The notes: a model not told the origin generated them from the letters alone. Shown: positions 40,030-63,697, numbered from the stretch's first letter. The stretch: 64,000 nucleotides of DNA from Candidatus Omnitrophota bacterium (GCA_037146775.1 JBAWWL010000007.1:1536-65535); one strand, 5' to 3'. A program made the numbers and translations.

Positions 40030-40030
40030 A

Positions 40031-46866: not shown

Positions 46867-49800
46867 ATGAATACCGATCTCACATTTTTTACAAACGAAA
46901 AAGGAGCAACCCTGCTAGACAGGTTCAAAGTAACCCTTGAAAACAATACAAAGTTTTTTGATGTCCTAGTGGGTTATTTTAGAACGAGTGCATTTTTTAG
47001 TTTATATAAGTCGCTTGAAAAAGTTGAAAAAATTAGAATTTTGGTTGGGATTAATGTTGATAAACAAACACAAAATCTATTAGGGCAAGCCAAGGAAGGG
47101 CAGCTTACACTTAAGTTTTCGCATAAAGAAGTAAAAGACGCTTTTGTCGAAGAAGTTAGCAAGGAAATGGAGGAGTCCGAAGATAACTCAGAAATAGAAT
47201 TAGGTGTCTATAAATTTATCGAATTTATAAAATCTGGTAAGCTAGAAATCAGAGCCCATCCTTCGCAGTCTATTCACGCCAAGCTCTATATAATCCGTAA
47301 AGATTCTACAAAAAGTGAAGATTATGGTAGGGTTATAACTGGTTCGAGTAATTTTACCTTCTCTGGTCTCCAGGAAAATATCGAATTTAATGTAGAATTA
47401 AAAGATAGCCGGGATGTGGAATATGCTTTAAAAAAATTTGATACACTTTGGGAACAATCAGTGCCTATCTCTAATGAATACATCGAAGCAATCAATGATA
47501 AGACTTGGCTTAATGACGCAATTAAGCCTTATGAACTTTACCTAAAATTCCTTTACGAATATTTTAAAGATAAAATAAATGAAGATATGGATTCCATTTA
47601 TAAGGATAGAAGATTCTTGCCTGAAGGCTACATGGAGCTTGAGTATCAAGACGAAGCCGTAAAAGATGCTTTAGCTAAATTAGGTGATTACGGTGGAGTT
47701 TTCTTAGCAGACGTTGTCGGCCTAGGAAAAACTTATATTTCAGCTTTACTTGCCCAGCAGCTCGACGGTTATACTCTTATAATTTGTCCACCGGTACTAA
47801 AAAACTATTGGCATGATACCTTCCGAGATTTTGGAGTAAGGGGATTTGAAGTAGAATCTTTGGCCTTGAGCAAAATTGATAGAATAATTGAGGAAGGTCC
47901 TGAAAAGTACAAGAATATTTTCATCGATGAGGCACATCGCTTCCGTAATGAGACAAACCAGACTTATGCAAAGTTAAAACAGCTTTGTTGGGGGAAGCGA
48001 GTTATTTTAGTTTCTGCAACACCATTGAATAATACTCCATTTGATATCCTAAGTCAAATAAAGCTATTTCAAAAGGAACATAATAGTACGGTTCCTAATG
48101 TTCGGGATCTAGGAAGATTCTTCGCTGGACTACACGAGAGATTAAAATCAACTGATCGTAAGAATCTCAAGGAATATTTAGCGATAGTAAAGGAGAATTC
48201 ACAAGCAATTAGAGAGAATGTGCTTAAATATTTGATGGTTAGAAGAACCCGTTCAGAAGTTCTGAAATACTTCAAGAAAGATCTTGATAAGAGAAAGATT
48301 AAGTTTCCTTCAGTGGCTGAGCCCAAGAGGGTCTACTATGAATTTGATAATAATCTAGAAAATGTATTTATTCAAACAATCAAACTCATTAAGACATTTA
48401 AGTATTCCAGGTATATGCCATTCAATTACTTAAAGAATCCAGATGCGGAAGACAGACAGGAACAAGTTTCTCAACGTAACCTTGGTCGTTTCATGAAGAT
48501 ACTATTAGTGAAGCGTCTAGAAAGCAGTTTTTATGCTTTCAACATGACTCTGGACAGGTTCATTAATTCTTACAAGGATTTTATCGATATGCTAAATAAA
48601 GGGAATATTTATATAAGCAAGAAATATAGCGATAAAATTTACGAAGCAATAGGTAATGACACAGAGGATAGTCTAGATGAACTAGTTAATCAGGAGAAAA
48701 TTAAAAAATATAAGAAAGGTGATTTTGCAAATGATTTTCAGAAAGATTTAGAAAGCGATTATAAAATATTATTGGAAATAAAAAAAATGTGGAACAGTGT
48801 AAAAACAGATCCTAAGATAATAAAATTTAAGGCTATACTTAATAATGATAAGATTCTAAAGAATAATAAAATAATTATCTTTACAGAATCTAAGGAAACA
48901 GCAGAATATCTAGATAGAAATTTAAGAGATGTCTTTGGCGATAAGATCATATCTTATTCAAGCAAGTCTGGCTCTACTGTTCGTGATGAAATCACTGCAA
49001 ACTACGACCCTAATTCTAAGATCCACAAGGACAACATAAGAATACTAATTACTACTGATGTACTGGCAGAGGGTGTTAATATGCATCGTTCCAATGTGGT
49101 TATAAATTATGATATTCCTTGGAACCCTACCAAAGTCTTGCAAAGAGTGGGACGTGTTAACAGGATTGGGACTATTCATGACAATATATATGTTTATAAC
49201 TTTTTTCCTACCGTTTATTCAAATAGTGAAATTAAGCTAGAGGAGGCGGCTATTGCAAAAATTCAAGCATTTCATCATACTCTCGGAGAAGATGCGCAAT
49301 ACTTAACCGACGGGGAAGAAATCAGCTCCCATGAGTTGTTTACTAGGCTTAATTCTAAAAAGGTACTCGAAAATGGCGAAGAAGAAGAAAGGGATTCAGA
49401 ACTTCAATATTTATCTGAGATACGTAATGTCCGCGATGCTAACCAACAGTTATATGAAAGAATTAAAAAACTTCCTAAGAAATCACGGAGTGCTAAGTTT
49501 TATAAAGGGGAGAAAGAATCAGGGGTAACATTTTTTAGAAAAGGAAAATTACGTAAAATGTTTATTGCTGACTCTCAAAGTGCAAGAGAATTAAACTTCT
49601 TTGCCGCGGCTCGGTTATTAAAAGCGGAAGCCAGTGATATCAGGGAAAAAATTGCAGCGAGTTTTTATGAATTCATTGTTAAGAACAAAAAAGCATTCAG
49701 CTCGGCCACTGCTGAAGAGGTGAGACAATTTGGGCAACTGGGAGCCGGTAGTAATGAGAAAAAGCTTATTCGATACACAAAGGCAATCAGAAAAACTGCT

Positions 49801-50082
49801 GGATTCACTGATCGAGACGAAGAATATCTAAATAAAATAATAACGATTTTAGAAGATGGAACGCTAGCTAAACAGACAACCAAGGTTTTAATCAAAGAGA
49901 TTGATAAAGAGACTAAAAAAGAAATAAAAAAAGACAAAGTCCCCTTTAATATTTTAAAGAAATTTAAAGAAAAAATTCCAGATACATTTTTTGCCGAATC
50001 TATTTTGAGCAGCCCACATCAGGTTTCTTCCCCGAAGGAAGTTATTCTCTCCGAACTTTTAATTCCCGAAAGAAAAACTTAA
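46867..50082 (+). CDS. PLD-family nuclease (HxK) fused to SNF2-family helicase (DISARM DrmC+DrmD-like fusion)
   Basis: N-terminal HAKLYIIRK...GSSNFT (PLD HKD motif). SNF2 motifs: GLGKTYISA, DEAHRFRN, SATPLNNT, helicase-C ITTDVLAEGVNMHRSNVVINYDIPWNPTKVLQRVGRVNRIG. Confidence 0.8.
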   Translation: MNTDLTFFTNEKGATLLDRFKVTLENNTKFFDVLVGYFRTSAFFSLYKSLEKVEKIRILVGINVDKQTQNLLGQAKEGQLTLKFSHKEVKDAFVEEVSKEMEESEDNSEIELGVYKFIEFIKSGKLEIRAHPSQSIHAKLYIIRKDSTKSEDYGRVITGSSNFTFSGLQENIEFNVELKDSRDVEYALKKFDTLWEQSVPISNEYIEAINDKTWLNDAIKPYELYLKFLYEYFKDKINEDMDSIYKDRRFLPEGYMELEYQDEAVKDALAKLGDYGGVFLADVVGLGKTYISALLAQQLDGYTLIICPPVLKNYWHDTFRDFGVRGFEVESLALSKIDRIIEEGPEKYKNIFIDEAHRFRNETNQTYAKLKQLCWGKRVILVSATPLNNTPFDILSQIKLFQKEHNSTVPNVRDLGRFFAGLHERLKSTDRKNLKEYLAIVKENSQAIRENVLKYLMVRRTRSEVLKYFKKDLDKRKIKFPSVAEPKRVYYEFDNNLENVFIQTIKLIKTFKYSRYMPFNYLKNPDAEDRQEQVSQRNLGRFMKILLVKRLESSFYAFNMTLDRFINSYKDFIDMLNKGNIYISKKYSDKIYEAIGNDTEDSLDELVNQEKIKKYKKGDFANDFQKDLESDYKILLEIKKMWNSVKTDPKIIKFKAILNNDKILKNNKIIIFTESKETAEYLDRNLRDVFGDKIISYSSKSGSTVRDEITANYDPNSKIHKDNIRILITTDVLAEGVNMHRSNVVINYDIPWNPTKVLQRVGRVNRIGTIHDNIYVYNFFPTVYSNSEIKLEEAAIAKIQAFHHTLGEDAQYLTDGEEISSHELFTRLNSKKVLENGEEEERDSELQYLSEIRNVRDANQQLYERIKKLPKKSRSAKFYKGEKESGVTFFRKGKLRKMFIADSQSARELNFFAAARLLKAEASDIREKIAASFYEFIVKNKKAFSSATAEEVRQFGQLGAGSNEKKLIRYTKAIRKTAGFTDRDEEYLNKIITILEDGTLAKQTTKVLIKEIDKETKKEIKKDKVPFNILKKFKEKIPDTFFAESILSSPHQVSSPKEVILSELLIPERKT

Positions 50083-53000
50083 TGAAGAACATAATTAAAC
50101 AATCTTTAGAAGGCAGCTTTAATCTAGATAATTTTAGCCTATTAGTTAAGAATATTTTCAATAAAATTGATATAAACCCACAAGAGATAACAGTATTTAA
50201 TGGTTTCGAAGAGCATATAAAGAGTCTTACTTTTCTAGGAGAATATTGCGATTCTCAAGATAAAAATCTTGATGTTTTAGCTATCGAGTTAATAGGTGAT
50301 ACGAAAATTGAAAGAGCCCGCTCATTTCAGAGGAACATAGTTGCTAAATATCTTAAAAATAATACTAAAGATTCTAGCCTTGTTGCTTTTTATTCCCAAG
50401 GCAACCCCGATTGGCGGCTATCATTCGTAAAACTCGATTATAAGCTTACCGATAAAGGCCCGAGAGCTGAAGTTGGTACACCTGCAAAGCGATATTCATT
50501 TCTTGTAGGAGAAACAGAACCATCACACACAGCTCAAGCTCAGTTACTTCCTATCCTAGAGAAGCAAAAAGAGAATCCGTCAATTTCTGAAATTGAAGAG
50601 GTTTTTAGCGTTGAAAAAGTTACGAAAGAATTTTATGAGAAATACCTAGATCTATTTAAAAGGCTGTCAAGAAACTTAGAAAGAAATAAAGAATTTGAAG
50701 ATATTGCCAATAAAGAACAGATTGATATTGAAAACTTCACGAAAAAACTAATTGGCCAGATAGTTTTCTTATATTTTCTACAGAAAAAAGGGTGGCTAGG
50801 AGTACCCCGTAAAAAATCTTGGGGTGAGGGGGATAAGTTTTTCTTAAGAACCTTATTTGATAAAGCAGAAAAAGAAAAAGGAAACTTTTATAACGATTAC
50901 CTCGAAATCCTCTTTTATGATACATTAAACAATCCTCGTAAAGATAAAGATGAGCCAGAATATTCTACTTATTTTGACTGTAAAATACCTTTCTTAAATG
51001 GCGGACTATTTGGACCAGATTATGATTGGAAGAATACAACGGTGAAACTATCCAATGAGATTTTTGAAGACATCATATCTACGTTCGATATTTATAACTT
51101 TACTGTGAAAGAGGATGACCCACTAGAGAAAGAAATTGCTGTTGATCCAGAAATGCTAGGTAAGGTTTTTGAGAATCTACTTCCGGAAAACCTACGTAAA
51201 GGTAGGGGCGCCTATTATACTCCTAGAGAAATAGTTCACTATATGTGTCAGGAAAGCTTAATTAACCATCTTTCTACTGAAACAAAGGTGGATATTGAAA
51301 AAGTCAGAAAATTAGTCAATTTAAGCGATTCAGGAATATCTAAAAATGAAGCAGAATCAATTGATAAGGCAATTTCCAGCATAAAGGTCTGCGATCCGGC
51401 TTGTGGCTCTGGTGCATTTCTTGTAGGCATGCTTCACGAAATAGTGAATACGCGTCACAACCTAACTAATCTCCTGAATTTAGAAGGTAAAGATTTAAAA
51501 GAAAGGGGCGAATACAACCTAAAGAAGCAAGCGATAGAAAATTGTATATATGGGGTTGATATAGACCCTGGAGCCGTGGATATTGCTAAGCTCAGGCTTT
51601 GGCTTAGCCTAGTTGTAGATTACGATGAAGAAGTTATTAAACCATTGCCTAATCTTGACTATAGAATAATGTGTGGTAACAGTCTATTAGAGGAATTTGA
51701 AGGTGTTAGATTCTATGATGGTAGTAATGGAAATGGAGAGAAATCTTTGTTTAAAGATGAGCGGAAGGAAAAGATAGAAGAGCTAAGAAGAAAAACGAAA
51801 GAATATTTTAATATTTTTGATGATGAAGAAAAACACAATAAAAGTAAAGAAATTAATAAACTCAAAGATTGGTTTATAAGGACAACTTTAGAAAAGAGAA
51901 GAAAGAAAATTACTCTTCAGCGTAAGAAAATAGAAGCCAATGTAAATATGTTTAACAGTGAAAGCCAGAAAGAATATTTTGTGAATCAAAAGCATATATT
52001 TATTTCAGAAGCAAAAATCAATGAGGTTTTACAAAATTTGCATAATCCACAAAAGGCGCGGCCATTCTTTATTTGGAAGCTAGAATTTATGGATGTTTTT
52101 GAGGAAAAAGGTGGGTTTGATGTGATAATGGCAAATCCGCCGTATGGGATAATTTTCAAAGATGATCTTAAGGAAGAATACGAAGGTAAATACAATACAT
52201 TTTTGAGGAATAACGATATTTATGTTGCATTTATTGAACGCGGAATAGATCTAATACAAAACAATGGCATGATAACATACATAACGCCGAATACTTACCA
52301 AAATGGAGATTATTTTATCAAATTAAGAAACTTTATGATTTCGAATTTAAAAATTTTTGAAATTCTTGATTTTAAAAATATTCCAGTTTTTGACGATCCG
52401 ACGGTTTTTGTGTCAATTTTTAATGCACAAAAAAATAACTCAGGGTCTTCTATAATTCCCCTGGGAATAGTAATAAGTTATAAAGAAAGGATGGAGCGCG
52501 TTCTTTCACTTATCAGAATTGACAAAGGGGATAAAAATTTATTTTTTAAACCTCAAAATCAAATTATTCAAAAATTCATTAAGGACTGCTCAATAGAAGA
52601 ATTTGACAAAGTATTTTATATAAAAGATGTTGGTTTCAATTACTGGACAGTAGGAAAGGGTAAAAAGAGAGATGGCAATTCTATCGGAGACAGGATTTTT
52701 TACGCAGGTAAAAGACTCAGTGAATCAGACATCCCATTTCTTAAAGGTAGGAATATTGATAGGTTTTTCATACAAGAACCAGATAATTATTTGAGACATA
52801 ATTATAAAGACTTCCTTAATTCTAAATTTGACGTTTTTAGATTTTCCAAAGAATTTCTTGAAATTTCACCTAAAATAATTTATAGACAAACTTCCGCAGA
52901 TATTAAGGCAACAATTGATCATGGTAAGAACTATCTGGATAAAACTGTTCATTTGATTGTGTTACGTGATATTAATTTAAAAATTAATTTAAAATATGTT

Positions 53001-53321
53001 TTAAGTTTACTTAATTCGAAATTATTCCAATATCTATACGCTTATATCTCGCAAGAAAGCTATGGGAGGACATTCGCACAAGTCAAAACTACATATATAA
53101 AGAAGCTGCCCTTTAAAAAAATATCCGAGGACGAGCAAATCTCTTTTGTTAAGCTTGTTGATAGGATTCTTTCTGTCACGAAGGATGAAGACTACTTAAC
53201 TAATTCTGTTAAGCAAGCAAAAGTCAAAGAATACGAACACCAGATTAACCAGATGGTCTATAAACTTTACGGACTTACCAAAGAAGAAATTGAAGTCGTT
53301 GAAAGTTTTAATAAAAAATAA
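50082..53321 (+). CDS. Large N6-adenine DNA methyltransferase, Eco57I/PglX/DrmMI-like
   Basis: GAYYTPREIVHYM (motif X/I region). CDPACGSGAFL (FxGxG SAM site). IMANPPYG (NPPY catalytic motif). 1079 aa. Start overlaps the upstream stop (TAATG). Confidence 0.8.
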   Translation: MKNIIKQSLEGSFNLDNFSLLVKNIFNKIDINPQEITVFNGFEEHIKSLTFLGEYCDSQDKNLDVLAIELIGDTKIERARSFQRNIVAKYLKNNTKDSSLVAFYSQGNPDWRLSFVKLDYKLTDKGPRAEVGTPAKRYSFLVGETEPSHTAQAQLLPILEKQKENPSISEIEEVFSVEKVTKEFYEKYLDLFKRLSRNLERNKEFEDIANKEQIDIENFTKKLIGQIVFLYFLQKKGWLGVPRKKSWGEGDKFFLRTLFDKAEKEKGNFYNDYLEILFYDTLNNPRKDKDEPEYSTYFDCKIPFLNGGLFGPDYDWKNTTVKLSNEIFEDIISTFDIYNFTVKEDDPLEKEIAVDPEMLGKVFENLLPENLRKGRGAYYTPREIVHYMCQESLINHLSTETKVDIEKVRKLVNLSDSGISKNEAESIDKAISSIKVCDPACGSGAFLVGMLHEIVNTRHNLTNLLNLEGKDLKERGEYNLKKQAIENCIYGVDIDPGAVDIAKLRLWLSLVVDYDEEVIKPLPNLDYRIMCGNSLLEEFEGVRFYDGSNGNGEKSLFKDERKEKIEELRRKTKEYFNIFDDEEKHNKSKEINKLKDWFIRTTLEKRRKKITLQRKKIEANVNMFNSESQKEYFVNQKHIFISEAKINEVLQNLHNPQKARPFFIWKLEFMDVFEEKGGFDVIMANPPYGIIFKDDLKEEYEGKYNTFLRNNDIYVAFIERGIDLIQNNGMITYITPNTYQNGDYFIKLRNFMISNLKIFEILDFKNIPVFDDPTVFVSIFNAQKNNSGSSIIPLGIVISYKERMERVLSLIRIDKGDKNLFFKPQNQIIQKFIKDCSIEEFDKVFYIKDVGFNYWTVGKGKKRDGNSIGDRIFYAGKRLSESDIPFLKGRNIDRFFIQEPDNYLRHNYKDFLNSKFDVFRFSKEFLEISPKIIYRQTSADIKATIDHGKNYLDKTVHLIVLRDINLKINLKYVLSLLNSKLFQYLYAYISQESYGRTFAQVKTTYIKKLPFKKISEDEQISFVKLVDRILSVTKDEDYLTNSVKQAKVKEYEHQINQMVYKLYGLTKEEIEVVESFNKK

Positions 53322-53335
53322 CTTAAGAAATTATA

Positions 53336-54265
53336 GTGGTAATTAAACATAAAATTGAGCCACAATCTGAAGCAAAGCCTTTTTTGAAATGGGCTGGGGG
53401 AAAAACAAGATTACTTAAATATTTCAGGGAATATTACCCTAGAAATATTGGAAGAGAATTCAAAAGATACAGTGAGCCTTTTGTTGGTAGCGGAGCTGTT
53501 TTTTTTGATTTGGTATCCCAAGGTGCGCTAAAGGGTAAGGAGGTAGTATTAGCTGATTCTAGCAATTATTTGATTAATTGTTATAAGCAATTGCAAAAAA
53601 GTACCTGGCTAGAAGTATTGCGCCAATTAAATAGACTAACTAAACAATGGCAGGATAACGAATCGTATAGTAAAAATAAAGATGAATATAACGAATTAAT
53701 CGAGGATGATCGTTCTGGTAGACGAGTTGATCTTATTCGCTGCGCAGCTTTGTTTATTTTTCTAAATAAGACTTGTTTCAATGGGGTTTACCGGGTTAAT
53801 AGTAAAGGTTATTTTAATGTACCAAAAGGCAAATATGCTGAAGTTCCAGTTTTTAAAAGAGGAGCCCTTGAGGCAATCCATTCGGCGTTAAGGGGTGTTA
53901 AACTAATGAGCGGTCCGTATAAACAAATTATTGAAGGTATAAAGGTAACTAGAAATGATTTCTTGTATATGGACCCTCCTTACATAAAATTAAGTAAAAC
54001 ATCAAGTTTTACTGGTTATCAACAAGAACCCTTTGGAATGGATGAGCAGAAGGAATTAGCCGAATATTGCGTAGAACTTCAGAAGAAAGGTTGTTATTCG
54101 TTAATAAGTAACCATTGGGTAGAATGTATTAAAGAATTATACCCTAAAGATTATTTCAAATATAAAACTTTTTCAGTTTCAAGATGTATTAATTCAATTG
54201 CCGAAAGAAGAGGTAATCTAACAGAAGAAGTTTTAATCATCTCTAAAGAAAAAGAGACAAACTAA
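53336..54265 (+). CDS. Dam-family (D12 class) N6-adenine DNA methyltransferase
   Basis: FLKWAGGKTRLL N-terminal motif. FVGSGAVFFDL (SAM). LYMDPPYI (DPPY). Confidence 0.75.
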   Translation: MVIKHKIEPQSEAKPFLKWAGGKTRLLKYFREYYPRNIGREFKRYSEPFVGSGAVFFDLVSQGALKGKEVVLADSSNYLINCYKQLQKSTWLEVLRQLNRLTKQWQDNESYSKNKDEYNELIEDDRSGRRVDLIRCAALFIFLNKTCFNGVYRVNSKGYFNVPKGKYAEVPVFKRGALEAIHSALRGVKLMSGPYKQIIEGIKVTRNDFLYMDPPYIKLSKTSSFTGYQQEPFGMDEQKELAEYCVELQKKGCYSLISNHWVECIKELYPKDYFKYKTFSVSRCINSIAERRGNLTEEVLIISKEKETN

Positions 54266-54266
54266 A

Positions 54267-54809
54267 ATGAAGAAGAACATAGATTTTCTTAATTATGGTA
54301 CGGTTAAACATATTAAAGACTTGCTTAGAAGGGTTGATGAAGGAAAAGAGCCATACGCCCAAGGGGTTTGCTATCCGCAGGCTGATGATGTTGAGAAGGT
54401 CAATAGGCTTGTGATCAGTATTTTTAATGGTCAGACTAGCAAGGAAGATTTAGGCAGAATATTAAATGTTACCTTAAGGCAGGTTGATTACTATGGTAAT
54501 GCAGCAGTTTATCTCGGTTTCTTGCAGACAAACCGAGGACAATTTCAGCTTACTGAATTGGGGAAAAAGTTTGCTCAATATGATAAAAAACAAAGAGAAA
54601 ATTTGCTTATTGAGCAGTTTTTTAAAATTCCTAGTATAAGGAAAGTTTTCAGACAGTTACTTCCCTTGACGCTTGATATTAATTTAGTGATGGATTCTAT
54701 GGCTAGGGCACAAGTAAACCTAAACACAAAGAAAATGCAACGTAGAAGGGCACAAACTATCCACGCTTGGGTTAATTGGGCTTTAGAAAACATGGAAAAG
54801 ACAATTTAA
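54267..54809 (+). CDS. Hypothetical 180-aa protein in the methyltransferase-helicase operon
   Basis: No nuclease or HTH motif confidently recognised. 1-nt gap after the Dam gene. Confidence 0.35.
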   Translation: MKKNIDFLNYGTVKHIKDLLRRVDEGKEPYAQGVCYPQADDVEKVNRLVISIFNGQTSKEDLGRILNVTLRQVDYYGNAAVYLGFLQTNRGQFQLTELGKKFAQYDKKQRENLLIEQFFKIPSIRKVFRQLLPLTLDINLVMDSMARAQVNLNTKKMQRRRAQTIHAWVNWALENMEKTI

Positions 54810-54817
54810 CATATATG

Positions 54818-56743
54818 GCAATTATAATTCCGAGTAATTTTAGTAAACTTAAAGGCGATCTCGAACTTAAGAATAAAGAAGAGAATCTAATTATGACCTT
54901 ACAGGAGTTATTTAATGACCAGACAATATGTTTAGTGCAAGTTAACTCATTCCCGTACGAGAAGGCGAAGTTTTTGGCTTGTTTAATCTTGAAGGATAAA
55001 GGGATAATTCTCATAAAATCAATGGAGACTAAAAAGACCCCTAATTTTAAAGAACTTGAGGTAGACGTCCACTCATTGCTTTTTGAGTGTAGCTATAAGA
55101 AATTAGCAAACCATAGACAGTTGCAACTAACAGCACCTGATGGTGTATACCTTAAATTTCCTTTGAAAATTATTTTTTATTTTTATTCTCTTAATAGAAA
55201 AGATATCGATTCGAATGGTGTAAAAAAGTTTACTGAGGAGAATACACTCTTTGATGATGATGTTGATAAGTCTTTTGATGATCCTGATAAATTTAAGAAT
55301 CGTTTATATAGTGGTTTAAAAACAGTTAATCCAGAGTTCGCGCAATTATCGGCCGATGATATTCAGGCTATTACTTTTCAGGTTTGTCCTGAGTATACAA
55401 TCCCGCGATATTTATGCGAGGCAGTTCAGCCCATAAAAGTTACTTCGATTAATCCTGAAAAATCGTTAAGACCCATAGAGGTAACAGGAGACGAGAATTT
55501 TGTTAAAGCCTGGGGTATGGATGATGAGCAGATAAAATTAGTAAACAGCCTTCTTGAGCAGCATGAGCTTTTATTAGCATGCGCAGGTAGTGGTAAGAGT
55601 GTTTTACTTCTCTCGCGTGCTATAAAAATAGCTAAGATGTATCCAGAGAAGAAAATCTTACTTACTTTTTACAATACCCCCCTGCGCTCTTTTTATGAAT
55701 GGCGTCTTGCTGTGGCGGGGGTTAACTTGCGCAACATAATTTGTACAAATTTTCATCAGCTATGTTTTCAGTTGCTAGAAAGAAATCATTTACCAACGCC
55801 AACTCGCAGGCCAGAAGAAGATGAAGATCATTTCTTTAAAAGAGTTATAGCTGAGACGCGTCAGGCAATTGAAGATGAAGAAATAGAAGACAGATTTGAT
55901 GCGATATTTATCGATGAAATACAAGATTTTGATTCAGAATGGTATAGATTGTGCTACAGTCTTTTCAAGGATAAAAAGAAAAACTATATTTTGTGTTTAT
56001 GTGGCGATGTAACTCAAGATGTAAATAATCGAATTAAGGGAAGTACAGCTCCTTGGCATGGTGAAGGTTTGCCAAGTTTCAAGGGCCATGCAAAGAGATT
56101 AAGAAAAAACTACCGTAACAGTAGAGAAATAAATGAGTTGGTGAAAAACTTTTCTAACCTTTGTTGTAGTTGGGCTCTTGGTAATCTTGGTATTAAAATT
56201 AATGATGATGATTTTCTGGATGGTGTAGCAGAAAAAATAACAGGTATTTATCCAAAAATACATCAAGCGACGCGAATGGAAGAGAGTTCTTTGGTATTAA
56301 AAATAGTAAAAGAACTCAAAGAAAAACATGGAGTTCCTTACAGCGACATAGCCGTTTTGTATCCATATAAAGGATTTACAGGGGCGTTAAATTATCACAT
56401 ACAACATTGGTTATCAGAAAAGCTTAGAGAAGCAGGGATTCAACATTCTTTTGTCCGCGATTGCGATAACTTTCCTACTTTTTATCATTATGCGACAAGG
56501 AGGGGTGTTACTTTGGCTAGTATGGGGGTGATTAAGGGATTAGATTTCCAAGCAATTATAATTTGCGGCCTTTTACCATTTGTTTGTAGGAATCAACAAA
56601 GCCCTGAACAGCTATTAACTAACATGAAAAGAATTTACACGGCCATGACTAGAGCAATGACGCATTTAGAGGTAGTTTTAACTAATCCTCCAGAAAGAGA
56701 CTTGATTACTAAGTTTATTTTAGAGGCGTATAAGAGTCTTTAA
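54818..56743 (+). CDS. NERD-like N-terminal domain + UvrD/Rep-like SF1 helicase
   Basis: Walker A LLACAGSGKSVLL. Motif II IFIDEIQDFDSEW. N-terminal FLACLILKDKGIILIKSMETK resembles the NERD segment of the 62012 paralogue. ATG at 54818 preferred over 54776. Confidence 0.55.
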   Translation, partial: AIIIPSNFSKLKGDLELKNKEENLIMTLQELFNDQTICLVQVNSFPYEKAKFLACLILKDKGIILIKSMETKKTPNFKELEVDVHSLLFECSYKKLANHRQLQLTAPDGVYLKFPLKIIFYFYSLNRKDIDSNGVKKFTEENTLFDDDVDKSFDDPDKFKNRLYSGLKTVNPEFAQLSADDIQAITFQVCPEYTIPRYLCEAVQPIKVTSINPEKSLRPIEVTGDENFVKAWGMDDEQIKLVNSLLEQHELLLACAGSGKSVLLLSRAIKIAKMYPEKKILLTFYNTPLRSFYEWRLAVAGVNLRNIICTNFHQLCFQLLERNHLPTPTRRPEEDEDHFFKRVIAETRQAIEDEEIEDRFDAIFIDEIQDFDSEWYRLCYSLFKDKKKNYILCLCGDVTQDVNNRIKGSTAPWHGEGLPSFKGHAKRLRKNYRNSREINELVKNFSNLCCSWALGNLGIKINDDDFLDGVAEKITGIYPKIHQATRMEESSLVLKIVKELKEKHGVPYSDIAVLYPYKGFTGALNYHIQHWLSEKLREAGIQHSFVRDCDNFPTFYHYATRRGVTLASMGVIKGLDFQAIIICGLLPFVCRNQQSPEQLLTNMKRIYTAMTRAMTHLEVVLTNPPERDLITKFILEAYKSL

Positions 56744-56762
56744 CTAACAAAGGATCGAATTT

Positions 56763-59700
56763 ATGAATGATATTCGTGCAAAAATAATTGAGCATATTAA
56801 CCAGAAGCTTTTTCAAGAAGTTACTGGTAGAAATATAGACAGATTGATATGGCAAGATAGGTTTGATGAAAAATTCTTTATCGGCTTGCTTTCAGCCGGA
56901 AGCACAGAGCATGAAGAATTTCAAACTCGTGCTCGGACAAAGCAGATAGGTATCGATATATTATTAAAAAAGGAAGAAGTTGAAAAAATAAAATTAACCT
57001 ATTCTGTAAGTGGCTCATTTTTTTATAGAGTTTTTCCTAGTCTTACCGAGCAAAGAGAATTTTACGTTAAAAAGTTTAATGAGAACTTTTCGCAACAGAT
57101 TGATTCCTGGAATGATTTAACCTATTTTCTTCAGAATAATCCCTCCTTCAAACCAATCAAGTGTGATGTTGCTCCAGTTTTTTGTAAGATTAAGCTTGTA
57201 GATGAACCAATTGAATATAGGTTAGCAGGTAAAGAGCTTGATTCACATTTGAATGTAAAGAGCGATGCGCACAGGGAGTTTGTTTTGAATATGGCAAATA
57301 GTAGCACTGACTATTATTATATTATTCGCGAAGAAGTAGAATTAAAAGATTTAAATAGCAAAGATAAATGGCAAGAGTTTATTAGAAATAACAAAAGCGA
57401 TAGAATGCCTTTACAGTGGGACTTTGATTATAACATCAAAGAAATTGATTATGATAAAGATAGAATGCGTATTTCTTTTACTTGGTCGAATATGGCGCAG
57501 GTGGAAACAAGAAATGGCAAATTAGTATATGATGGAATTAGGGTGAATGAGATATTTGATTGTAAGATTAAGTTAAAAGTTGATGGCGGCGAGCCTTGTA
57601 GGTTTACGATGAAGGGCTTCGCAGAAGATTATAAATACGACCGTACTATAAAAGCAATAGGAAAGAATTGTTTCATCGAGGAAAATAATGTTAACGGTAA
57701 TATTCTTGAGACGAATCCGTGCCCTGTGTATGAACAGTACAGGTTAAAAGTAAGGCGTTTTGGCTTAATTCCAACTTTTGAGGGGTTTTCTAAAGAACCT
57801 TTGCCTATTCTTGATTCTATTGCTTCGGAAATGGATAAGTACATTGAAAATTTTGATATTGAAGTAAAAGAGTTTTTTGCACATAAAGGTTTGGATATGC
57901 AAGAAAAGAAGACGCAGCTAGATTACGAGAAGGCAGATTTTTCTAGAGAAAGAGAAAGATTCAAAAAAGGTATTAGTATTTTAAAAAACTGTCCGGACGT
58001 TCTGCAAGCATTCAGACTAATGAATAAAAGTTTTCTAAATAGTAGCATTAACTTTAATTCTTGGCATTTATTTCAGATAGTATTCATTGTGTCTTTGCTT
58101 CCAGATTTCGCGAAGAATAAGTATAGTGAAATAGAGGGTGATAGCTTAGACAAGGTTGATTTATTATATTTTCCAACCGGTGGTGGAAAAACAGAGGCTT
58201 TCTTGGGGTTAATAATTTTTAATCTGTTTTTTGATCGCCTTAGAGGGAAAAAATTAGGTGTTACCGCTTTAGTTAAATATCCATTAAGGCTTTTGTCTAT
58301 TCAACAGATGCAAAGAATCGCTGATATAGTAGCTTCTGCAGAAAAGATACGAAGAGAGGAGGAGAACTTAAAGGATAGCGAAGGCTTTGCGGTTGGATAT
58401 TTTGTAGGAGAAAGTAATACTCCTAATAAGATAGACAAGAAAGAGTCCCAAAATTTAGTTAAAATGAGTCAAGATAACTTAACGAAACAGTACCTCATTC
58501 TCGACAAGTGTCCTTTTTGTCAGAAAAAAGGTATGATAATTAAGTATCTTGAGCAAAACAATCGACTAGCACATTTTTGTCCCAATTGTGATGAGGGCTT
58601 ATTACCGATCTATATTGTTGATAGAGAAATATATAGATATTTGCCTTCAGTTGTAGTAAGTACGATTGATAAATATGCTGGAGTTGGTAATCAGAGAAAT
58701 TTCAGAAACATTCTAGGCTGCGTATCTGCAAGATGTTCTCTGCATGGGTTTACCAGCCAACTTGAATGTACGGAAAAGGGTTTTGCTGGGGTTTGCACTT
58801 TATCAAAAGACAAGTTAGAAAAAGTTAATTATCAGAATTTATCTCCCACTCTCTTAGTTCAAGATGAGTTACATCTTTTATCGGAATCATTAGGGATATT
58901 TGATTCTCATTATGAGACGTTTATTAAGTATTTCATTGAGCATTTAATGAGTAGTACGAGTAAGCTTAAAATTATTGCTGCAACAGCTACAATTTCACAT
59001 TATAAGAATCAAATAAAGCATTTATATATGCAAGATGCTATTCGTTTTCCAACCCCATCTCCAAATCCAAATAAGTCTTTTTATTATATGGTTGACTATA
59101 ATGAATTAAATAGAGTATTTATCGGCATCGCTCCTGTAGGCATAACCCCTAAGACTGCCGTTTATAAGATTGTTGAACTTTTACGTAATTATATTTTTGA
59201 ATATTATGATAGCCCAGTAAAATTAAATAATGAATTAAAGCTAAAGCTGAGCGATTCAGAGATTAAAGAAATTCTTCGTGATTACTGGACTATATTGGAA
59301 TATAACCAGAAGAAAAGTGACACATTAAATATTTGTGATACCCTTGGTAAAACAGTAAATCCGAAGCTTAAGGAGCAAGCTAGGTTTAATATTGAGAACT
59401 TAACTGGAGATAAGAAGTTAGAAGAGGTACGACAAATAATTTCAGATATAGAAAATCCTAATAATCCATTACCAAGCCCGGATTTTCTTGCGGCGACCAG
59501 CATGATATCTCACGGAGTCGATATTGATATCTTTAATATTATGGTACTCTATGGTGTTCCTCAGACCATAGGTGAGTATATTCAGGCTACGAGCCGTGTT
59601 GGGAGGCAACATCCTGCTTTTGTCTTCTGCATATTTATAGTTAATAGGGAAAAAGATAGAAGCTATTATAAATATTTCAAGCAATTCAACGAGTGTAAAG

Positions 59701-62003
59701 ATATTCTTATTGAACCAGTTCCGATTAATAGGTGGGTAAACAATGCTGTCGACAGGACTCTTCCAGGTATATTTTTCGCATTAATGCTTCTTTACTATGA
59801 TTTCAAAATTCAGAATGAGCATGGTTCTAATATTTATTTAACCGGTGGATTTCGTGATGCAGTAAAAAATGGCTGGTTGGCTAGCTCTGACAATATAGCC
59901 GATATGGTTATTCAATCTTATTTAGCTTATGGGCCATCAGGAGAATTATTTCGAGAGAAGATAAAAGTCAAAGTGAAAGACATTTACGATAAGCTAAGTA
60001 ATTGGTCGTTAAGCAAGAGAGACTTTATCGCTACGGCTCTTGATGGATATCATCCTATGCGCAGCTTGCGAGATACAGATATTCAGATAGAGATCGAGCA
60101 TCCGCAGCTAAATAAAACAATGAGTCGGGGAGTTATGCAGTTGTTGTATAGACACTTTCCTTGTACCTGGTTGTATTTTGATAAAGGTAGATTAGAGCAA
60201 GAAGTTTCTTTTATTGATTTCTGGGATAGCCGTGAAATACCAGTCGCAAATTTAAATAAGAAACGGTTATTAAAAAGAGTAGAAAAGTATATAAGTGGTT
60301 TTGGTAATAGAAAGAACATCAATATTCCTTTAAATGAGAATGAATATTTAGTATTACAACCAATAAGAGCTCATGCAGTTACAAAAGCAGAAACGTATTT
60401 CTGCACCAATAATAAGTGCAATAAAGTATTTAAAAAACATGCTTTAATTAATGGAAATTGCCCAGATTGTCATCGTAGAGCTAGCCAAATGCCGCTAGTA
60501 TATGCATGTGATTGTGGCTGGACAGGTCCAGTAGAGGTTATGGGTTGTAGACAGCATGGCTTGCAGGATATGAGATTTCGTGACGGCAGGTATGATACTA
60601 GGAGTTGGATTTGTAAAATAGATAACCAAGCCGTTAATGTAAGAACACGTTGCCCGGAGTGTCAGAAGGTTCCCCTATATCCTAAGAATATCGGAGATGC
60701 TTCTATTTCTATACCTAGAACTGTAACAATGATTGATCTTGTTGAGTCTGATAAGGAGAAATCACTTGAGCATCCAAATGGGGTCCCCCTCATATATGCT
60801 ACATGGCTAGGTAAAGTTTCAATTTCAGAAGCCGCAGACTTATTTAGGAGCATTCTGAATCCATTGCCAGAACAGGAAGATTTAGCTAAGAAGATGGAGG
60901 AAGAAGTTAAACAAAATATGGAAAATCTGGGAGTTGACGAGAACTTAGCCAGAAGGATTGCGGAGAAATATCTTAAGGGTAGCCGTGATATTACCGGTAG
61001 ATTAAATGAAATTAATAACTGGATTTCAGATAAAATCGTTAATCTATCTGAAGATGCTAAAAGAATAAATGCAACTAGCATTCTTGAGTTTGAGACAATA
61101 AATTCTTTAAAAGAAGCGCGGGATCTTAGCACTATTTCTGAATTTAACAAGCAGCTTTTATCCCAAGAGAATTTACAGGATTATAAGAGCATTGCAAACA
61201 AATACGGATTTATTAGCGTAAAAGCTTGTTCTAACGTTCCTATGGTGTATTGCAATTATGGATACTCAAGAAATGAATTTGAAATGGGCGGTTCAACAAC
61301 ATTATTAGGTTTTCCTCCTGATAGAGAAGTAAAGGCTAGATTTCCCGGAAAGAAGAATATTTATGCCCAAAAATATAATACAGAAGGTATAGTTTTTGAG
61401 CTTGATAGGGCACGAATATTATTCTGGTTGCTTAAAAACAAAATAGTTGATAGGGTTACTAATAATTTACCCGGAAATTTAAATAACGAAGAAGAAGCGA
61501 AACTATGGTTTATAAACAACTTAAGGCAGGATTTACTTTCTCCATTCAAACCTATTAAAGTAATAGATCATAAAATTACCTATTATGTGCATACCCTAAC
61601 CCATACACTTTCACACATGCTCATAAAAAATGCCGAAGCCTTGTTGGGGTTAGATAAAAATTCTTTAGGCGAGTATTCATTTTTAACTGTTCCCAGTTTC
61701 TTAATATATTCACATGACATGCACGATTTTCCGCTAGGAGCATTCTTTAATTTATTTGCGAACTCTTTCCAGGCGTGGCTTGAGAATTCGTTTGAGGCTA
61801 GTTCGTCTTGCATAAACGATCCAATATGTATCGAACATTTAACTAAAGAGCCTGGAGATGAAACAGCTTCGTGTTTCGATTGTCTTCACCTCAATGAAAT
61901 ATCTTGCCAGTATATGAATTATAATTTAGATAGAAAATTGTTAACTGGTAAGGTAAAAGAAGATAAACATATTTTCTTCGGTTATTGGGAGAATCTGGAG
62001 TAA
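56763..62003 (+). CDS. 1746-aa SF2 (DExH) helicase with multiple zinc ribbons and DUF1998-like 4-Cys C-terminus (DrmA+DrmB / DruE / MrfA-like)
   Basis: Motif I YFPTGGGKTEAFL. Motif II LVQDELHLL. Motif VI QATSRVGRQ. Cys clusters CPFCQ...CPNC, CTNNKCN...CPDCH, CDCGW, CPECQ. C-terminal SCINDPIC...SCFDC...C. Confidence 0.7.
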   Translation: MNDIRAKIIEHINQKLFQEVTGRNIDRLIWQDRFDEKFFIGLLSAGSTEHEEFQTRARTKQIGIDILLKKEEVEKIKLTYSVSGSFFYRVFPSLTEQREFYVKKFNENFSQQIDSWNDLTYFLQNNPSFKPIKCDVAPVFCKIKLVDEPIEYRLAGKELDSHLNVKSDAHREFVLNMANSSTDYYYIIREEVELKDLNSKDKWQEFIRNNKSDRMPLQWDFDYNIKEIDYDKDRMRISFTWSNMAQVETRNGKLVYDGIRVNEIFDCKIKLKVDGGEPCRFTMKGFAEDYKYDRTIKAIGKNCFIEENNVNGNILETNPCPVYEQYRLKVRRFGLIPTFEGFSKEPLPILDSIASEMDKYIENFDIEVKEFFAHKGLDMQEKKTQLDYEKADFSRERERFKKGISILKNCPDVLQAFRLMNKSFLNSSINFNSWHLFQIVFIVSLLPDFAKNKYSEIEGDSLDKVDLLYFPTGGGKTEAFLGLIIFNLFFDRLRGKKLGVTALVKYPLRLLSIQQMQRIADIVASAEKIRREEENLKDSEGFAVGYFVGESNTPNKIDKKESQNLVKMSQDNLTKQYLILDKCPFCQKKGMIIKYLEQNNRLAHFCPNCDEGLLPIYIVDREIYRYLPSVVVSTIDKYAGVGNQRNFRNILGCVSARCSLHGFTSQLECTEKGFAGVCTLSKDKLEKVNYQNLSPTLLVQDELHLLSESLGIFDSHYETFIKYFIEHLMSSTSKLKIIAATATISHYKNQIKHLYMQDAIRFPTPSPNPNKSFYYMVDYNELNRVFIGIAPVGITPKTAVYKIVELLRNYIFEYYDSPVKLNNELKLKLSDSEIKEILRDYWTILEYNQKKSDTLNICDTLGKTVNPKLKEQARFNIENLTGDKKLEEVRQIISDIENPNNPLPSPDFLAATSMISHGVDIDIFNIMVLYGVPQTIGEYIQATSRVGRQHPAFVFCIFIVNREKDRSYYKYFKQFNECKDILIEPVPINRWVNNAVDRTLPGIFFALMLLYYDFKIQNEHGSNIYLTGGFRDAVKNGWLASSDNIADMVIQSYLAYGPSGELFREKIKVKVKDIYDKLSNWSLSKRDFIATALDGYHPMRSLRDTDIQIEIEHPQLNKTMSRGVMQLLYRHFPCTWLYFDKGRLEQEVSFIDFWDSREIPVANLNKKRLLKRVEKYISGFGNRKNINIPLNENEYLVLQPIRAHAVTKAETYFCTNNKCNKVFKKHALINGNCPDCHRRASQMPLVYACDCGWTGPVEVMGCRQHGLQDMRFRDGRYDTRSWICKIDNQAVNVRTRCPECQKVPLYPKNIGDASISIPRTVTMIDLVESDKEKSLEHPNGVPLIYATWLGKVSISEAADLFRSILNPLPEQEDLAKKMEEEVKQNMENLGVDENLARRIAEKYLKGSRDITGRLNEINNWISDKIVNLSEDAKRINATSILEFETINSLKEARDLSTISEFNKQLLSQENLQDYKSIANKYGFISVKACSNVPMVYCNYGYSRNEFEMGGSTTLLGFPPDREVKARFPGKKNIYAQKYNTEGIVFELDRARILFWLLKNKIVDRVTNNLPGNLNNEEEAKLWFINNLRQDLLSPFKPIKVIDHKITYYVHTLTHTLSHMLIKNAEALLGLDKNSLGEYSFLTVPSFLIYSHDMHDFPLGAFFNLFANSFQAWLENSFEASSSCINDPICIEHLTKEPGDETASCFDCLHLNEISCQYMNYNLDRKLLTGKVKEDKHIFFGYWENLE

Positions 62004-62011
62004 GGTTAATT

Positions 62012-63697
62012 ATGGCGAAAATGATTCCCGAAAGCTTAACTTATTATAATTTTACTGAATCGGAAAAGTTAGTTTTTGATTCTTTGCGTACCCTAGGAGA
62101 AAATTTTACAGTTTTTTATTCTGTTCCTTGGCAAAAGAAAACCAATTTGGGTAACTTTAGATTCAATGGTGAGTGCGATTTTATAATCGAACATAAGGAT
62201 AAAGGATTTATATCCCTAGAAGTTAAGGGCGGTAAGGATATTAAAATAGAGAATAACATTTGGTACCTATATTTTAGTGAACGAGAACGACTAGACAGTG
62301 ATGAATATTTAGAAAATACTAATCAATTTATCAGGCGATTAAGGCAAAGTCCATTAGCTCAGTCACGGGATTCCATGTATTTCTTCGTTGATCATTTCAA
62401 GGAAAAATACGGAAGAGATTTCTCGGGGTTATTTGGGCATGCTGCTTGTTTCCCTAACTTTCGAATTAAGGATGACCTTGGGCCTGAAGCGCCAAAACAG
62501 ATTATTATTGATGCAAGCGGCATGATTAATATCGAGAAAAGAATTAATGAAATTTTTACTTATTACGAACATGATAGGAAGGGGCGATATATAGATAAAG
62601 ATCATTACGACTTTATTAATATAATTAGACTTAGGCGACACTATTCTATAACTAAAGGTAGCTTGATTAGAAATAGAAGCGATATCTTCGAGTCGATAAA
62701 CCATACTCAAGATTTATATTTAGAAATGATTGGAGAATATAAAGATGCTCTTATAACGGGTGGAGCTGGTACAGGAAAAACCTTTTGTGCTATTAAAAAA
62801 ACTAAACAATTAGCTAGCCAAGGGAAAAGAGTACTATTCATATGTTTTAATAAAAATCTTGCGGAGCATATAAAAGTTAATTATTTTTATAACATACATA
62901 ATGTCGATTGTTATAACTTTCATGAATTTATAAAGCTTTCGATAGGTTTAGACTTTTATAAAAAAATTTTCTTAGAGAGCAATAATAGATTTAACGGGCT
63001 TTTAAACCAGCTTCAAAATTCGCTCGAACGACTACCAAAATTCGATGCAATTATAGTAGACGAAGGACAGGATTTTGAAGAAGAGTGGTTTAAGTGTTTG
63101 AGTTTATTTGCGAAGGATGTACAAAACAAGATATTTTATGTTTTCTATGATAAAAATCAAGACATCTTTCAGGGGAATATTAGTCGGATATTAAAACTAT
63201 TTAATTATCCGCCTTTTCATTTGATTGAAAATCTTAGAAATTGTTCAGAAATTCAGAAGTGGGTTGTTGAAAAAACTGGTTTCGGTCATGATGTCATGCC
63301 CAACAAAATAGAAGGGGTGGAGCCGATAATATTTGAAGTAAAAAGTTTCGAACAAGTAAGTAGTGTTTTAAGTTCACTTTTTGACTCTCTTATCAAAAAT
63401 GAACTTATTGAGAATCACCAACTGATAATACTTTCTGATAGAAAACTGGAGAATAGTATTTTAAAAGAAAATAGACGAGTTGGTAACTATAGAATAATCG
63501 ATAGCATAATTGTTTGCGATCCCAACCCCGCCAATATTAGATTTGCTACTGTTCAGTCTTTTAAGGGGCTGGAATCCGATGTGGTTATCTATTTACAGCA
63601 CGATAATATTGAGCAAGGAAATAATAATATGCTTAAATATGTTGCATATACTAGAGCCCGGTTCATTCTTTATATTTTTAAATGTTTTATTTCTTAA
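62012..63697 (+). CDS. NERD domain + UvrD/Rep-like SF1 helicase (paralogue of 54818 gene)
   Basis: NERD: GECDFIIEHKDKGFISLEVKGGKDIKIENNIWY. Walker A ITGGAGTGKTF. Motif II IIVDEGQDFEEEW. GGAG RBS before the ATG at 62012. Confidence 0.6.
   Translation: MAKMIPESLTYYNFTESEKLVFDSLRTLGENFTVFYSVPWQKKTNLGNFRFNGECDFIIEHKDKGFISLEVKGGKDIKIENNIWYLYFSERERLDSDEYLENTNQFIRRLRQSPLAQSRDSMYFFVDHFKEKYGRDFSGLFGHAACFPNFRIKDDLGPEAPKQIIIDASGMINIEKRINEIFTYYEHDRKGRYIDKDHYDFINIIRLRRHYSITKGSLIRNRSDIFESINHTQDLYLEMIGEYKDALITGGAGTGKTFCAIKKTKQLASQGKRVLFICFNKNLAEHIKVNYFYNIHNVDCYNFHEFIKLSIGLDFYKKIFLESNNRFNGLLNQLQNSLERLPKFDAIIVDEGQDFEEEWFKCLSLFAKDVQNKIFYVFYDKNQDIFQGNISRILKLFNYPPFHLIENLRNCSEIQKWVVEKTGFGHDVMPNKIEGVEPIIFEVKSFEQVSSVLSSLFDSLIKNELIENHQLIILSDRKLENSILKENRRVGNYRIIDSIIVCDPNPANIRFATVQSFKGLESDVVIYLQHDNIEQGNNNMLKYVAYTRARFILYIFKCFIS

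Follow-up and report, generated by a model that had tools for sequence, protein, structure and literature searches.

A DISARM-family locus of a Candidatus Omnitrophota bacterium with a predicted DrmA-DrmB fusion between two superfamily 1 helicases

Introduction

Class 2 of the DISARM anti-phage systems is made up of DrmE-DrmA-DrmB-DrmC-DrmMII (Ofir et al. 2018; definitions in PMC9252829 and PMC9142583). The DrmAB complex of Serratia depends on ATP hydrolysis, is kept in an autoinhibited state by a trigger loop and binds single-stranded DNA that has a 5' overhang; the effector nuclease of DISARM has not been pinned down, and DrmC is often missing, non-essential and not part of the core complex (PMC9142583). 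Among the branches of the YprA family, DISARM is the only one with two parts, a helicase and an OB-CON-DUF1998 module, that consistently occur as separate adjacent genes, which is regarded as a hallmark (Bell et al., PMC12458937). Here, we describe a locus from a Candidatus Omnitrophota bacterium in which, judged by sequence, DrmA and DrmB are joined in one giant protein, and in which two helicases of superfamily 1 (SF1) flank the fusion gene at the positions of DrmE and DrmC. All positions refer to the analysed stretch of 64,000 nucleotides (GCA_037146775.1, JBAWWL010000007.1:1536-65535), which is called the window.

Similar sets of helicases are known from ARMADA type II systems, which consist of the SNF2 protein ArmA, the PglX-like methylase ArmB, the YprA helicase ArmC and the GajB-like UvrD helicase ArmD (PMC12458937). 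For DISARM-like operons, the swapping of nucleases has a precedent in RmuC/ShdA (PMC10270631), and Bell et al. acknowledge "many uncharacterized DISARM-like classes" (PMC12458937). Neither PADLOC v2 nor NCBIfam nor the literature that was searched yielded a name or description of the gene combination reported below. The accessible portion of the supplements of Bell et al. 2025 was also searched for the accession of the window protein and those of four relatives, and none of them was found.

Results

A giant protein combines DrmA and DrmB

The central gene encodes a protein of 1746 amino acids (aa); the databases list an identical protein from a metagenome-assembled genome of Candidatus Omnitrophota under the name "DEAD/DEAH box helicase". 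PADLOC yielded matches of this protein to DrmA (PDLC02576, E-value 2.7e-160, aa 198-1112) and to DrmB (PDLC02582, 1.1e-43, aa 1464-1743), and the NCBIfam models DrmAS and DrmB_fam gave E-values of 4.5e-111 and 1.7e-19. The sole solved structures with a similar sequence were the two chains of the Serratia DISARM core complex, DrmA (7s9v_A, 9e-53) and DrmB (7s9v_B, 1.9e-5). The search for homologues returned 2310 sequences; the best 120 were nearly all about 1140 aa long and covered the first 63% of the query, and only four sequences covered it in full length. By these sequence comparisons, the giant protein is a DISARM DrmA fused end-to-start to DrmB. The locus is thus a DISARM-family defence locus and not an unclassified helicase, an identity that a first-pass annotation of the window had missed. 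The features of the locus and of its surroundings are listed in Table 1.

Table 1. Predicted genes, domains and sites of the DISARM-family locus and its neighbourhood in the window
Feature	Position	Strand	Basis or remark
DrmA-DrmB fusion, 1746 aa, YprA-family superfamily 2 DExH helicase, DISARM branch	56763-62003	+	PADLOC, NCBIfam and PDB matches
DrmA-specific N-terminal domain, aa 1-460	56763-58142	+	Conservation, AlphaFold2 model, Foldseek
RecA1 part, Walker A to DELH motif II, with two inserted zinc sites	58179-58874	+	Alignment of 23 homologues; Pfam DEAD, Helicase_C
Fusion junction	60099-60125	+	DrmA C-terminal motif, 7-aa linker, DrmB N-terminal motif
Zinc-binding modules of the DrmB-derived half	60402-60662	+	C1214, C1219, C1233, C1236; C1249/C1251, C1297, C1300
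DUF1998/MZB cysteine cluster	61809-61907	+	C1683-x5-C1689-x14-C1704-x2-C1707...C1715
Upstream SF1 UvrD-like helicase, 641 aa from ATG	54818-56743	+	Pfam UvrD-helicase, UvrD_C, AAA_12
Downstream NERD-SF1 helicase, 561 aa from ATG	62012-63697	+	PADLOC; Pfam NERD at family level; SF1 motifs
Downstream NERD catalytic residues E54, D56, E70, K72	62171-62227	+
Dam-type (D12 class) N6-adenine DNA methyltransferase	53336-54265	+	Pfam MethyltransfD12, 9.9e-50
DUF7226 protein, 180 aa	54267-54809	+	Pfam DUF7226, 3.1e-21
Type IIG-like Eco57I-family N6-adenine methyltransferase	50082-53321	+	Pfam Eco57I, TaqI_C; paired with the PLD-SNF2 gene
PLD(HKD)-SNF2 helicase, DrmD-like	46867-50082	+	Pfam PLDc_2, SNF2-rel_dom, Helicase_C
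Large serine recombinase (Resolvase, Recombinase, Zn_ribbon_recom) and overlapping DUF2924 gene	44290-46358	-	Directly upstream of the operon, at the exact start of the low-GC segment
Two TIR-domain proteins	41600-42181, 42562-43542	+	ThsB_TIR, 7.9e-19; TIR_2, 4.3e-12
DarT (single-stranded DNA thymidine ADP-ribosyltransferase) and macro-domain DarG	39412-41152	+	DarT 2.3e-46; reading frames overlap by 29 nucleotides
1867-aa protein with DUF4011, AAA_11/AAA_12 SF1 helicase domains, MTES_1575 restriction endonuclease domain and DUF3320	33655-39258	+

At the junction, the DrmA C-terminal motif ..MRSLRDTDIQIEIE is followed by the linker HPQLNKT and the DrmB N-terminal motif MSRGVMQLLYRHFP... In the eight loci with separate genes that were compared, DrmA ends in ..M.SLRDTD....IE.. 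and DrmB begins with ..M.RG..Q.LY.YLP.. Both motifs match the ends of the separate genes, and the fusion is a clean end-to-start one. It would be easily accommodated, because in the DrmAB complex solved by cryogenic electron microscopy the N-terminus of DrmB is wrapped by the C-terminus of DrmA (PMC9142583).

For comparison, 80 genome loci that code for proteins related to the big helicase were collected; their open reading frames (ORFs) were searched with the window proteins, neighbouring genes were clustered and representatives were annotated. DrmA and DrmB are separate genes in all 80. Fused versions were found only in the window and in the loci L002, L003, L085/L086 and L087, the fused relatives showing identities to the window protein of 88% (L085/L086), 39%, 39% and 31%. 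Because these five distinct sequences stem from independent samples, the fusion is real. The single ORF departs in this respect from the separate-gene hallmark of the DISARM branch. In a neighbour-joining tree without support values, four fused sequences fell into one clade and the fifth elsewhere, which suggests two separate fusion events.

Domains and zinc sites of the fusion protein

The DrmA part comprises an N-terminal domain, a DExH core of superfamily 2 and a zinc ribbon, and the DrmB part comprises zinc modules and the DUF1998 Cys4 cluster. The first-pass annotation had left the N-terminal 450 or so residues unassigned. An AlphaFold2 model of the first 460 aa reached a pLDDT score (predicted local distance difference test) of 87.4. 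Foldseek compared it with the PDB, and the only significant matches were the DrmA chains 7s9v_A/7s9w_A (E-value 4e-11, probability 1.0), at an identity to Serratia DrmA of 12-13%. On the strength of the model, the N-terminal 450-460 residues are the DrmA N-terminal domain, which is conserved in all unfused DrmA-type homologues of about 1140 aa.

The DExH core that had been recognized at first pass was borne out: Walker A (G473-T477) and the DELH motif (D701-H704) are invariant in 23 homologues. The same alignment revealed two zinc sites, both within the helicase part. The first, a CPFC...H.C..C ribbon, has invariant residues C583, C586, H604 and C609, with C606 conserved to at least 90%; the second consists of the invariant C658, H661, C669 and C678. 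Several C4 ribbons had previously been placed within the DExH core. This is correct for the CPFC ribbon, whereas CTNNKC..CPDC and CPEC belong to the DrmB half. There, C1214, C1219, C1233, C1236, C1251, C1297 and C1300 are kept in 74/74 DrmB-type sequences, and position 1249 is occupied by Cys in SF1-type loci and by His in classic loci.

The terminal cysteine cluster had been likened to the zinc domain of MrfA/DrmB and is indeed that domain. A lack of conservation in homologues, which would have refuted the first-pass view, was not seen: the DUF1998 cluster is kept in all 74 DrmB-type sequences and C1715 in 73 of them. The Pfam model MZB matched the window protein alone only weakly (E-value 0.35), yet it matched the full-length profile. 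Furthermore, the spacing is close to that of the Cys4 motif of Serratia DrmB, which comprises C559, C565, C581 and C584 (PMC9142583).

Two distantly related SF1 helicases flank the fusion

Walker A and motif II are kept in both flanking helicases, with GSGKS in Walker A of the upstream one. Pfam scans of single sequences missed NERD in both window proteins; family-level scans and alignments were used instead.

For the downstream protein (Walker A GGAGTGKT, motif II VDEGQDF), the PADLOC model RTasNERD-Hel matched over the full length with an E-value of 2.4e-59, and matches to AbiO and GajB were found too. Pfam NERD (PF08378) was matched by 28/30 N-termini of this family with a best E-value of 9.5e-14, whereas the window copy alone falls short of an E-value of 0.01. 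The family shares the motif MA.M.P...SE.DF...G...EVKGG, and E54, D56, E70 and K72 are invariant in 52/52 members. At the level of sequence, the downstream helicase thus demonstrably carries an intact NERD nuclease domain of the PD-(D/E)xK type with the catalytic E/D/ExK residues, in addition to the SF1 motifs.

The situation is different for the upstream protein. The PADLOC model "NERD+UvrD" matched it over aa 207-643 only, PF08378 matched none of 29 N-termini of its family, and the NERD catalytic residues were not found at the corresponding positions. A BLASTP alignment with P0231, a bona fide NERD-UvrD protein, starts just after the NERD core and reaches the C-terminus (aa 102-617, 28% identity, E-value 8e-37). 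The N-terminus was modelled by AlphaFold2 with a pLDDT of 90.3 as an alpha-beta-beta-beta-alpha core; its top neighbours in the PDB were non-significant and mostly PD-(D/E)xK nucleases. When the N-termini of the two helicase families were aligned alone by hhalign, the signal was weak (P 0.0038, probability 8.8%). The sequence comparisons support a descent of the upstream helicase from the NERD-UvrD lineage, and its N-terminal domain is probably an inactivated domain of the same lineage. An assignment as DrmE was rejected, as a DrmE match was absent in both PADLOC and NCBIfam.

Between the two window proteins, BLASTP found 25% identity over 265 aa (E-value 5e-12), confined to the helicase cores. 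The profiles of the two families (54 and 52 members) were aligned by hhalign end to end with a probability of 99.6% and an E-value of 3.7e-24. Judged by these alignments, the two flanking helicases are distant homologues. The first-pass annotation had described them as paralogous NERD::UvrD proteins. Their similarity is real, but their closeness was overstated, and the NERD label holds for the downstream protein only; a pure pair of NERD::UvrD paralogues was rejected for the upstream gene, which lacks both the signature and the catalytic residues.

The upstream family is small, with 71 clusters at an E-value of at most 1e-30 among 1.84 billion representatives, and in the loci examined it was found only beside DrmA. 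Some upstream helicases, namely those of L045, L047, L070, L073 and L074, are 750-1036 aa long and have N-terminal extensions.

The SF1 helicases and DrmE/DrmC exclude each other

Sufficient sequence on both flanks was available for 62 of the genome loci. The order upstream SF1, DrmA, DrmB, downstream SF1 was found in 45/62, with near-zero spacing, in Bacillota, Desulfovibrio, Spirochaetales, Lentisphaerales and Omnitrophota; in the window, the gaps on the two sides of the fusion gene are 19 and 8 nucleotides. Three loci had the upstream helicase only, none had the downstream helicase only, and 14 had neither. All 14 of the latter carry DrmE (PF24957) and/or DrmC and represent classical DISARM class 2, often with a C5 methylase. 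SF1 helicases and DrmE/DrmC never occurred in one locus. The genes of the cassette are therefore linked, and the two SF1 helicases and DrmE/DrmC are mutually exclusive. The recurrent order agrees with the earlier view that three helicases of two superfamilies and a nuclease domain form a tight, non-accidental unit. The pair as such co-occurs with the DUF1998 helicase; its upstream member, however, no longer matches Pfam NERD.

In the neighbour-joining tree, the DrmA sequences of SF1-type loci form one clade beside archaeal classic class 2 systems. These archaeal outgroup loci carry DrmE, DrmC and a C5 methylase.

Two subtypes of the cassette can be distinguished. The first is represented by 33 loci, mostly from Clostridia (for example L007 5396-20459, L008, L014 and L020). 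This commonest form of the cassette has eight genes, which encode a GHKL ATPase, the upstream SF1 helicase, a protein X, DrmA, DrmB, the NERD-SF1 helicase, a protein of about 680 aa and a second GHKL ATPase. Protein X, located between the upstream helicase and DrmA, has about 350-550 aa and in some cases KH or DUF3553 domains; in general, neither X nor the 680-aa protein has a Pfam assignment. Matches to the added genes of this subtype were not found in PADLOC v2 (2023).

The second subtype is characterized by the Dam methylase and comprises 10 of the 62 genome loci, the metagenome locus L002 and the window. In these loci the Dam gene adjoins the cassette; it was never found together with gene X. 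Dam is probably the self-marking component of its subtype. In this subtype, Dam is often followed by a 768-aa DndB/DpdB-like protein with a ParB fold (PADLOC DpdB 7.2e-27), as in L040 (17594-19900), with homologues in L047, L073, L074 and L077; the window has the DUF7226 protein beside Dam instead. In PADLOC, the DUF7226 protein weakly matched the C-terminal end of a type II restriction endonuclease model (5e-9); a homologue was not found in the other loci, so that it is unique to the window among the loci examined.

Comparison with described systems

Two proteins are common to the locus and DISARM class 2, namely DrmA, including the N-terminal fold specific to it, the DExH core and the zinc ribbon, and DrmB, with zinc modules and the DUF1998 Cys4 motif. 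DrmA is identified by PADLOC, by the PDB matches and by the N-terminal fold, and DrmB by PADLOC, by the PDB matches and by the cysteines kept in 74/74 sequences. In contrast to class 2, the core is fused, there is no DrmE, no PLD protein DrmC after DrmB and no C5 methylase; instead, two SF1 helicases of the NERD lineage occupy the positions of DrmE and DrmC, and a Dam methylase is present. A PLD gene after drmB was not found in any SF1-type locus, and the only PLD domain of the window is located at the N-terminus of the SNF2 protein. With respect to methyltransferases, which in DISARM are DrmMI (adenine) or DrmMII (cytosine), the operon of the window has the Dam D12 enzyme and a type IIG-like methylase with a weak DrmMI match. 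As to the class markers, a DrmE match was absent from the window in PADLOC and NCBIfam, and the DrmD-like SNF2 protein is sub-threshold and not conserved with the cassette. The locus departs from DISARM as defined in several respects (DrmC, DrmE, separate core genes, NCBIfam thresholds), yet it clearly works with DISARM parts.

Sequence similarity to both chains and the match of the N-terminal fold connect the fusion protein to the class 1 DrmAB complex of Serratia (PDB 7S9V/7S9W). The partners are separate genes in class 1, and the window has only diverged, non-conserved DrmD/DrmMI-like genes upstream.

ARMADA type II resembles the window in its three kinds of helicases, its adenine methylase and its gene order, and its SF1 helicase also bears an N-terminal domain of the toxin/nuclease type. 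This domain is RelE in ARMADA; here it is NERD in the downstream protein and has a PD-(D/E)xK-like topology in the upstream protein. Moreover, the YprA homologue of ARMADA type II carries a Vsr-type nuclease at its C-terminus and, after RecA1, a BrxA-like insert, whereas the helicase of the window is one of the DISARM branch. The 1746-aa protein ends 31 aa past C1715, and a nuclease domain was not detected in it. The window also has a second SF1 helicase, and its SNF2/methylase pair does not accompany the cassette elsewhere. Membership in ARMADA, Druantia or Dpd was rejected; matches of the DruE or Dpd type were absent for the big helicase, and DpdE matches in PADLOC concerned only the SNF2 protein.

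The flanking helicases resemble two further groups, namely the RT-associated NERD-helicases, whose model the downstream protein matches over its full length, and NERD-UvrD proteins such as P0231, with which the upstream protein aligns past the NERD core. What differs is that they form a pair here, which flanks DrmAB, and that the NERD signature and catalytic residues are gone from the upstream copy.

Other genes of the operon and the island

Seven tightly packed, co-directional ORFs span positions 46867-63697 on the plus strand. The GC content of the stretch with the operon is 0.32-0.36, compared to 0.37-0.49 over most of the window upstream. In a scan for promoters and terminators, no internal terminator-like sites were found in the operon; sites were fewer than in shuffled sequence and otherwise uninformative.

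The first two genes encode the PLD-SNF2 protein and the type IIG-like methylase. The former gave PADLOC matches to "HKD+Snf2" (2.1e-47) and DrmD (2.4e-40) and scored 156 bits in the NCBIfam model of DrmD, the cut-off of which is 610. The latter matched REase_MTase_IIG with an E-value of 1.8e-159 and, far more weakly, DrmMI (8.4e-36), making it weakly DrmMI/PglX-like. The PLD-SNF2 gene is absent from L002, L085, L087 and most genome loci, and the methylase was not found beside the cassette in other loci. SNF2 genes occurred near the cassette in only two loci, both without a PLD domain or a methylase. Either the pair is a restriction-modification-like module of its own, or it is an accessory of this particular locus. 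The "BR type 2" systems, which are related to BREX, combine HKD-SNF2 and N6 methylase with DUF499 (PMC12839542); the pair resembles them in the first two genes, but a DUF499 gene is absent and this assignment was rejected. In L005 (168-7879), a SNF2 helicase without PLD and then a sacsin-like (GHKL-type) protein of 1500 aa lie directly upstream of a cassette that has no downstream helicase.

The operon is located in a defence island, which includes DarTG, two TIR-domain proteins and the DUF4011 protein. An obvious ThsA/SIR2 partner of the TIR proteins was not apparent among the ORFs of the window. The DUF4011 protein is a further large helicase-nuclease of the same island. The serine recombinase probably marks the boundary of a mobile element. 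The L002 cassette is flanked by integrases. The dense defence island, the recombinase and these integrases fit mobile defence cargo. About 1.7 kb past the operon and beyond the end of the window (L001 18645-22615), a DUF8426 gene precedes a pair of genes for a 661-aa GrpE-like and a 659-aa HSP70-family protein; the pair may be further cargo of the island.

Discussion

Positions 54818-63697 are likely to represent a variant of the DISARM anti-phage system, of which the Dam gene at 53336 is probably a part as well. Several observations weigh against this interpretation. The curated equivalog cut-offs of NCBIfam are far from being reached (DrmAS 372.6 bits against 950, DrmAL 260.5 against 999, DrmB_fam 70.1 against 240). 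The closest relative (88% identity, L085/L086) keeps the other two genes, but its downstream helicase is cut to a stub of 71 aa (L085 9683-9898, L086 7485-7586), of which the first 19 residues match the window protein before the sequences diverge, as if the presumed effector had been deleted recently. The downstream helicase is missing from three genome loci as well and may be dispensable or separable. A detectable methyltransferase is absent from the largest subtype (33 loci), which has GHKL ATPases and two further proteins instead. Furthermore, the DrmA tree was calculated by neighbour-joining and lacks support values, and the 80 genome loci were those that matched the query clade best, so that the frequencies given above are not population estimates. 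Finally, a physical complex of all three helicases is plausible, but it is something we infer.

Given that the closest relative has lost one gene and retained the other two, it is conceivable that the three helicase genes are neighbours and not parts of one machine. The locus would then consist of a minimal DISARM core DrmAB, a stand-alone NERD-SF1 protein (Nhi/AbiO-like or RT-associated) and a Gabija-GajB-like orphan, clustered in the way defence genes do, and the dense defence island of the window is consistent with this. That the RT-associated NERD-helicase is the best PADLOC model for the downstream protein, with AbiO and GajB matches besides, indicates that such proteins work elsewhere. 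Independent neighbours are nevertheless improbable in view of the fixed order and near-zero spacing in 45/62 loci across the groups named above, the strict mutual exclusivity of the SF1 helicases with DrmE/DrmC, and an upstream family that is small, distinct and found here only beside DrmA. Conversely, the unit could be larger. The seven genes are co-directional, tightly spaced and free of an internal terminator, SNF2, methylase, YprA-family helicase and SF1 helicase follow one another as in ArmA-D of ARMADA type II (PMC12458937), and there are DrmD-like, DrmMI-like and DrmC_I-like matches in PADLOC and NCBIfam. The whole string 46867-63697 might thus be one hybrid of DISARM class 1 and an ARMADA type II-like system, in which a SNF2 protein with PLD in place of DrmC and a PglX/DrmMI-like methylase act with YprA-family and UvrD-like helicases. 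We consider such a hybrid less probable still: none of the other relatives examined, with fused or separate genes, has the PLD-SNF2/type IIG pair (the 88% relative lacks it too), the DrmD score of 156 bits is far below the cut-off, and the big helicase is of the DrmA type by sequence and fold, has no Vsr nuclease and groups with classic class 2 DISARM.

It is very improbable that the locus is a DNA-repair module, in which an MrfA/YprA-like DUF1998 helicase would act with UvrD-type helicases outside of defence. The YprA/MrfA branch of DUF1998 helicases acts in repair (PMC7797055, PMC12458937), and UvrD is a repair helicase. However, the best matches of the protein are DrmA and DrmB and not MrfA, the genes lie in a low-GC island beside a recombinase and among DarTG and TIR genes, their patchy distribution is tied to mobile elements (as in L002 with its integrases), and the cassette is linked to methyltransferases and a NERD nuclease.

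For the DISARM variant, we infer a defence function, a division of labour and a role of methylation as follows. DrmA-DrmB, here one polypeptide, would serve as sensor, motor and loader. DrmE on the upstream side and the PLD nuclease DrmC on the downstream side would have been replaced by the two distantly related SF1 helicases of NERD-UvrD lineage. In the Dam subtype, host DNA would be marked by Dam methylation; DrmAB, by analogy with the Serratia complex, would load on incoming unmethylated DNA where this is single-stranded or has a 5' overhang. It would recruit or license the NERD-helicase, together with its upstream counterpart, so that the invader would be unwound and cut. The downstream NERD-SF1 helicase would be the likely DNA-degrading effector in the place of DrmC. 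The upstream helicase, with its intact ATPase motifs and a dead domain at the nuclease position, would be a likely regulatory or second-motor subunit in the place of DrmE. The PLD-SNF2 protein and the type IIG-like methylase would supply class 1-like functions (DrmD, DrmC domain, DrmMI). The largest subtype, which is without a detectable methyltransferase, argues against self-marking by methylation as a general feature of the family.

A more far-reaching interpretation is put forward only tentatively, as we regard it as rather unlikely. The cassette might be a distinct and widespread DISARM-derived class with three motors in one helicase-nuclease machine, in which the SF1 pair would resemble an AddAB/RecBCD-type pair with one active and one inactivated nuclease and would be loaded by DrmAB onto foreign DNA, and self would not be told from non-self by methylation. 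This last point, if true, would follow from the GHKL ATPases and the missing methyltransferase of the largest subtype.

The fusion shows that the DrmA/DrmB split was reversed at least once and possibly twice, and a single-chain DrmAB would be a convenient construct for biochemistry and cryogenic electron microscopy. A sister lineage has swapped DrmE/DrmC for an SF1 pair, one member of which has an invariant PD-(D/E)xK nuclease; this is a natural experiment on the destruction of phage DNA by DISARM, and it suggests a definite effector and an architecture of three motors that can be tested. Among the genomes sampled, the cassette is frequent in those of gut and rumen Clostridia, and it may matter for phage-host dynamics there.

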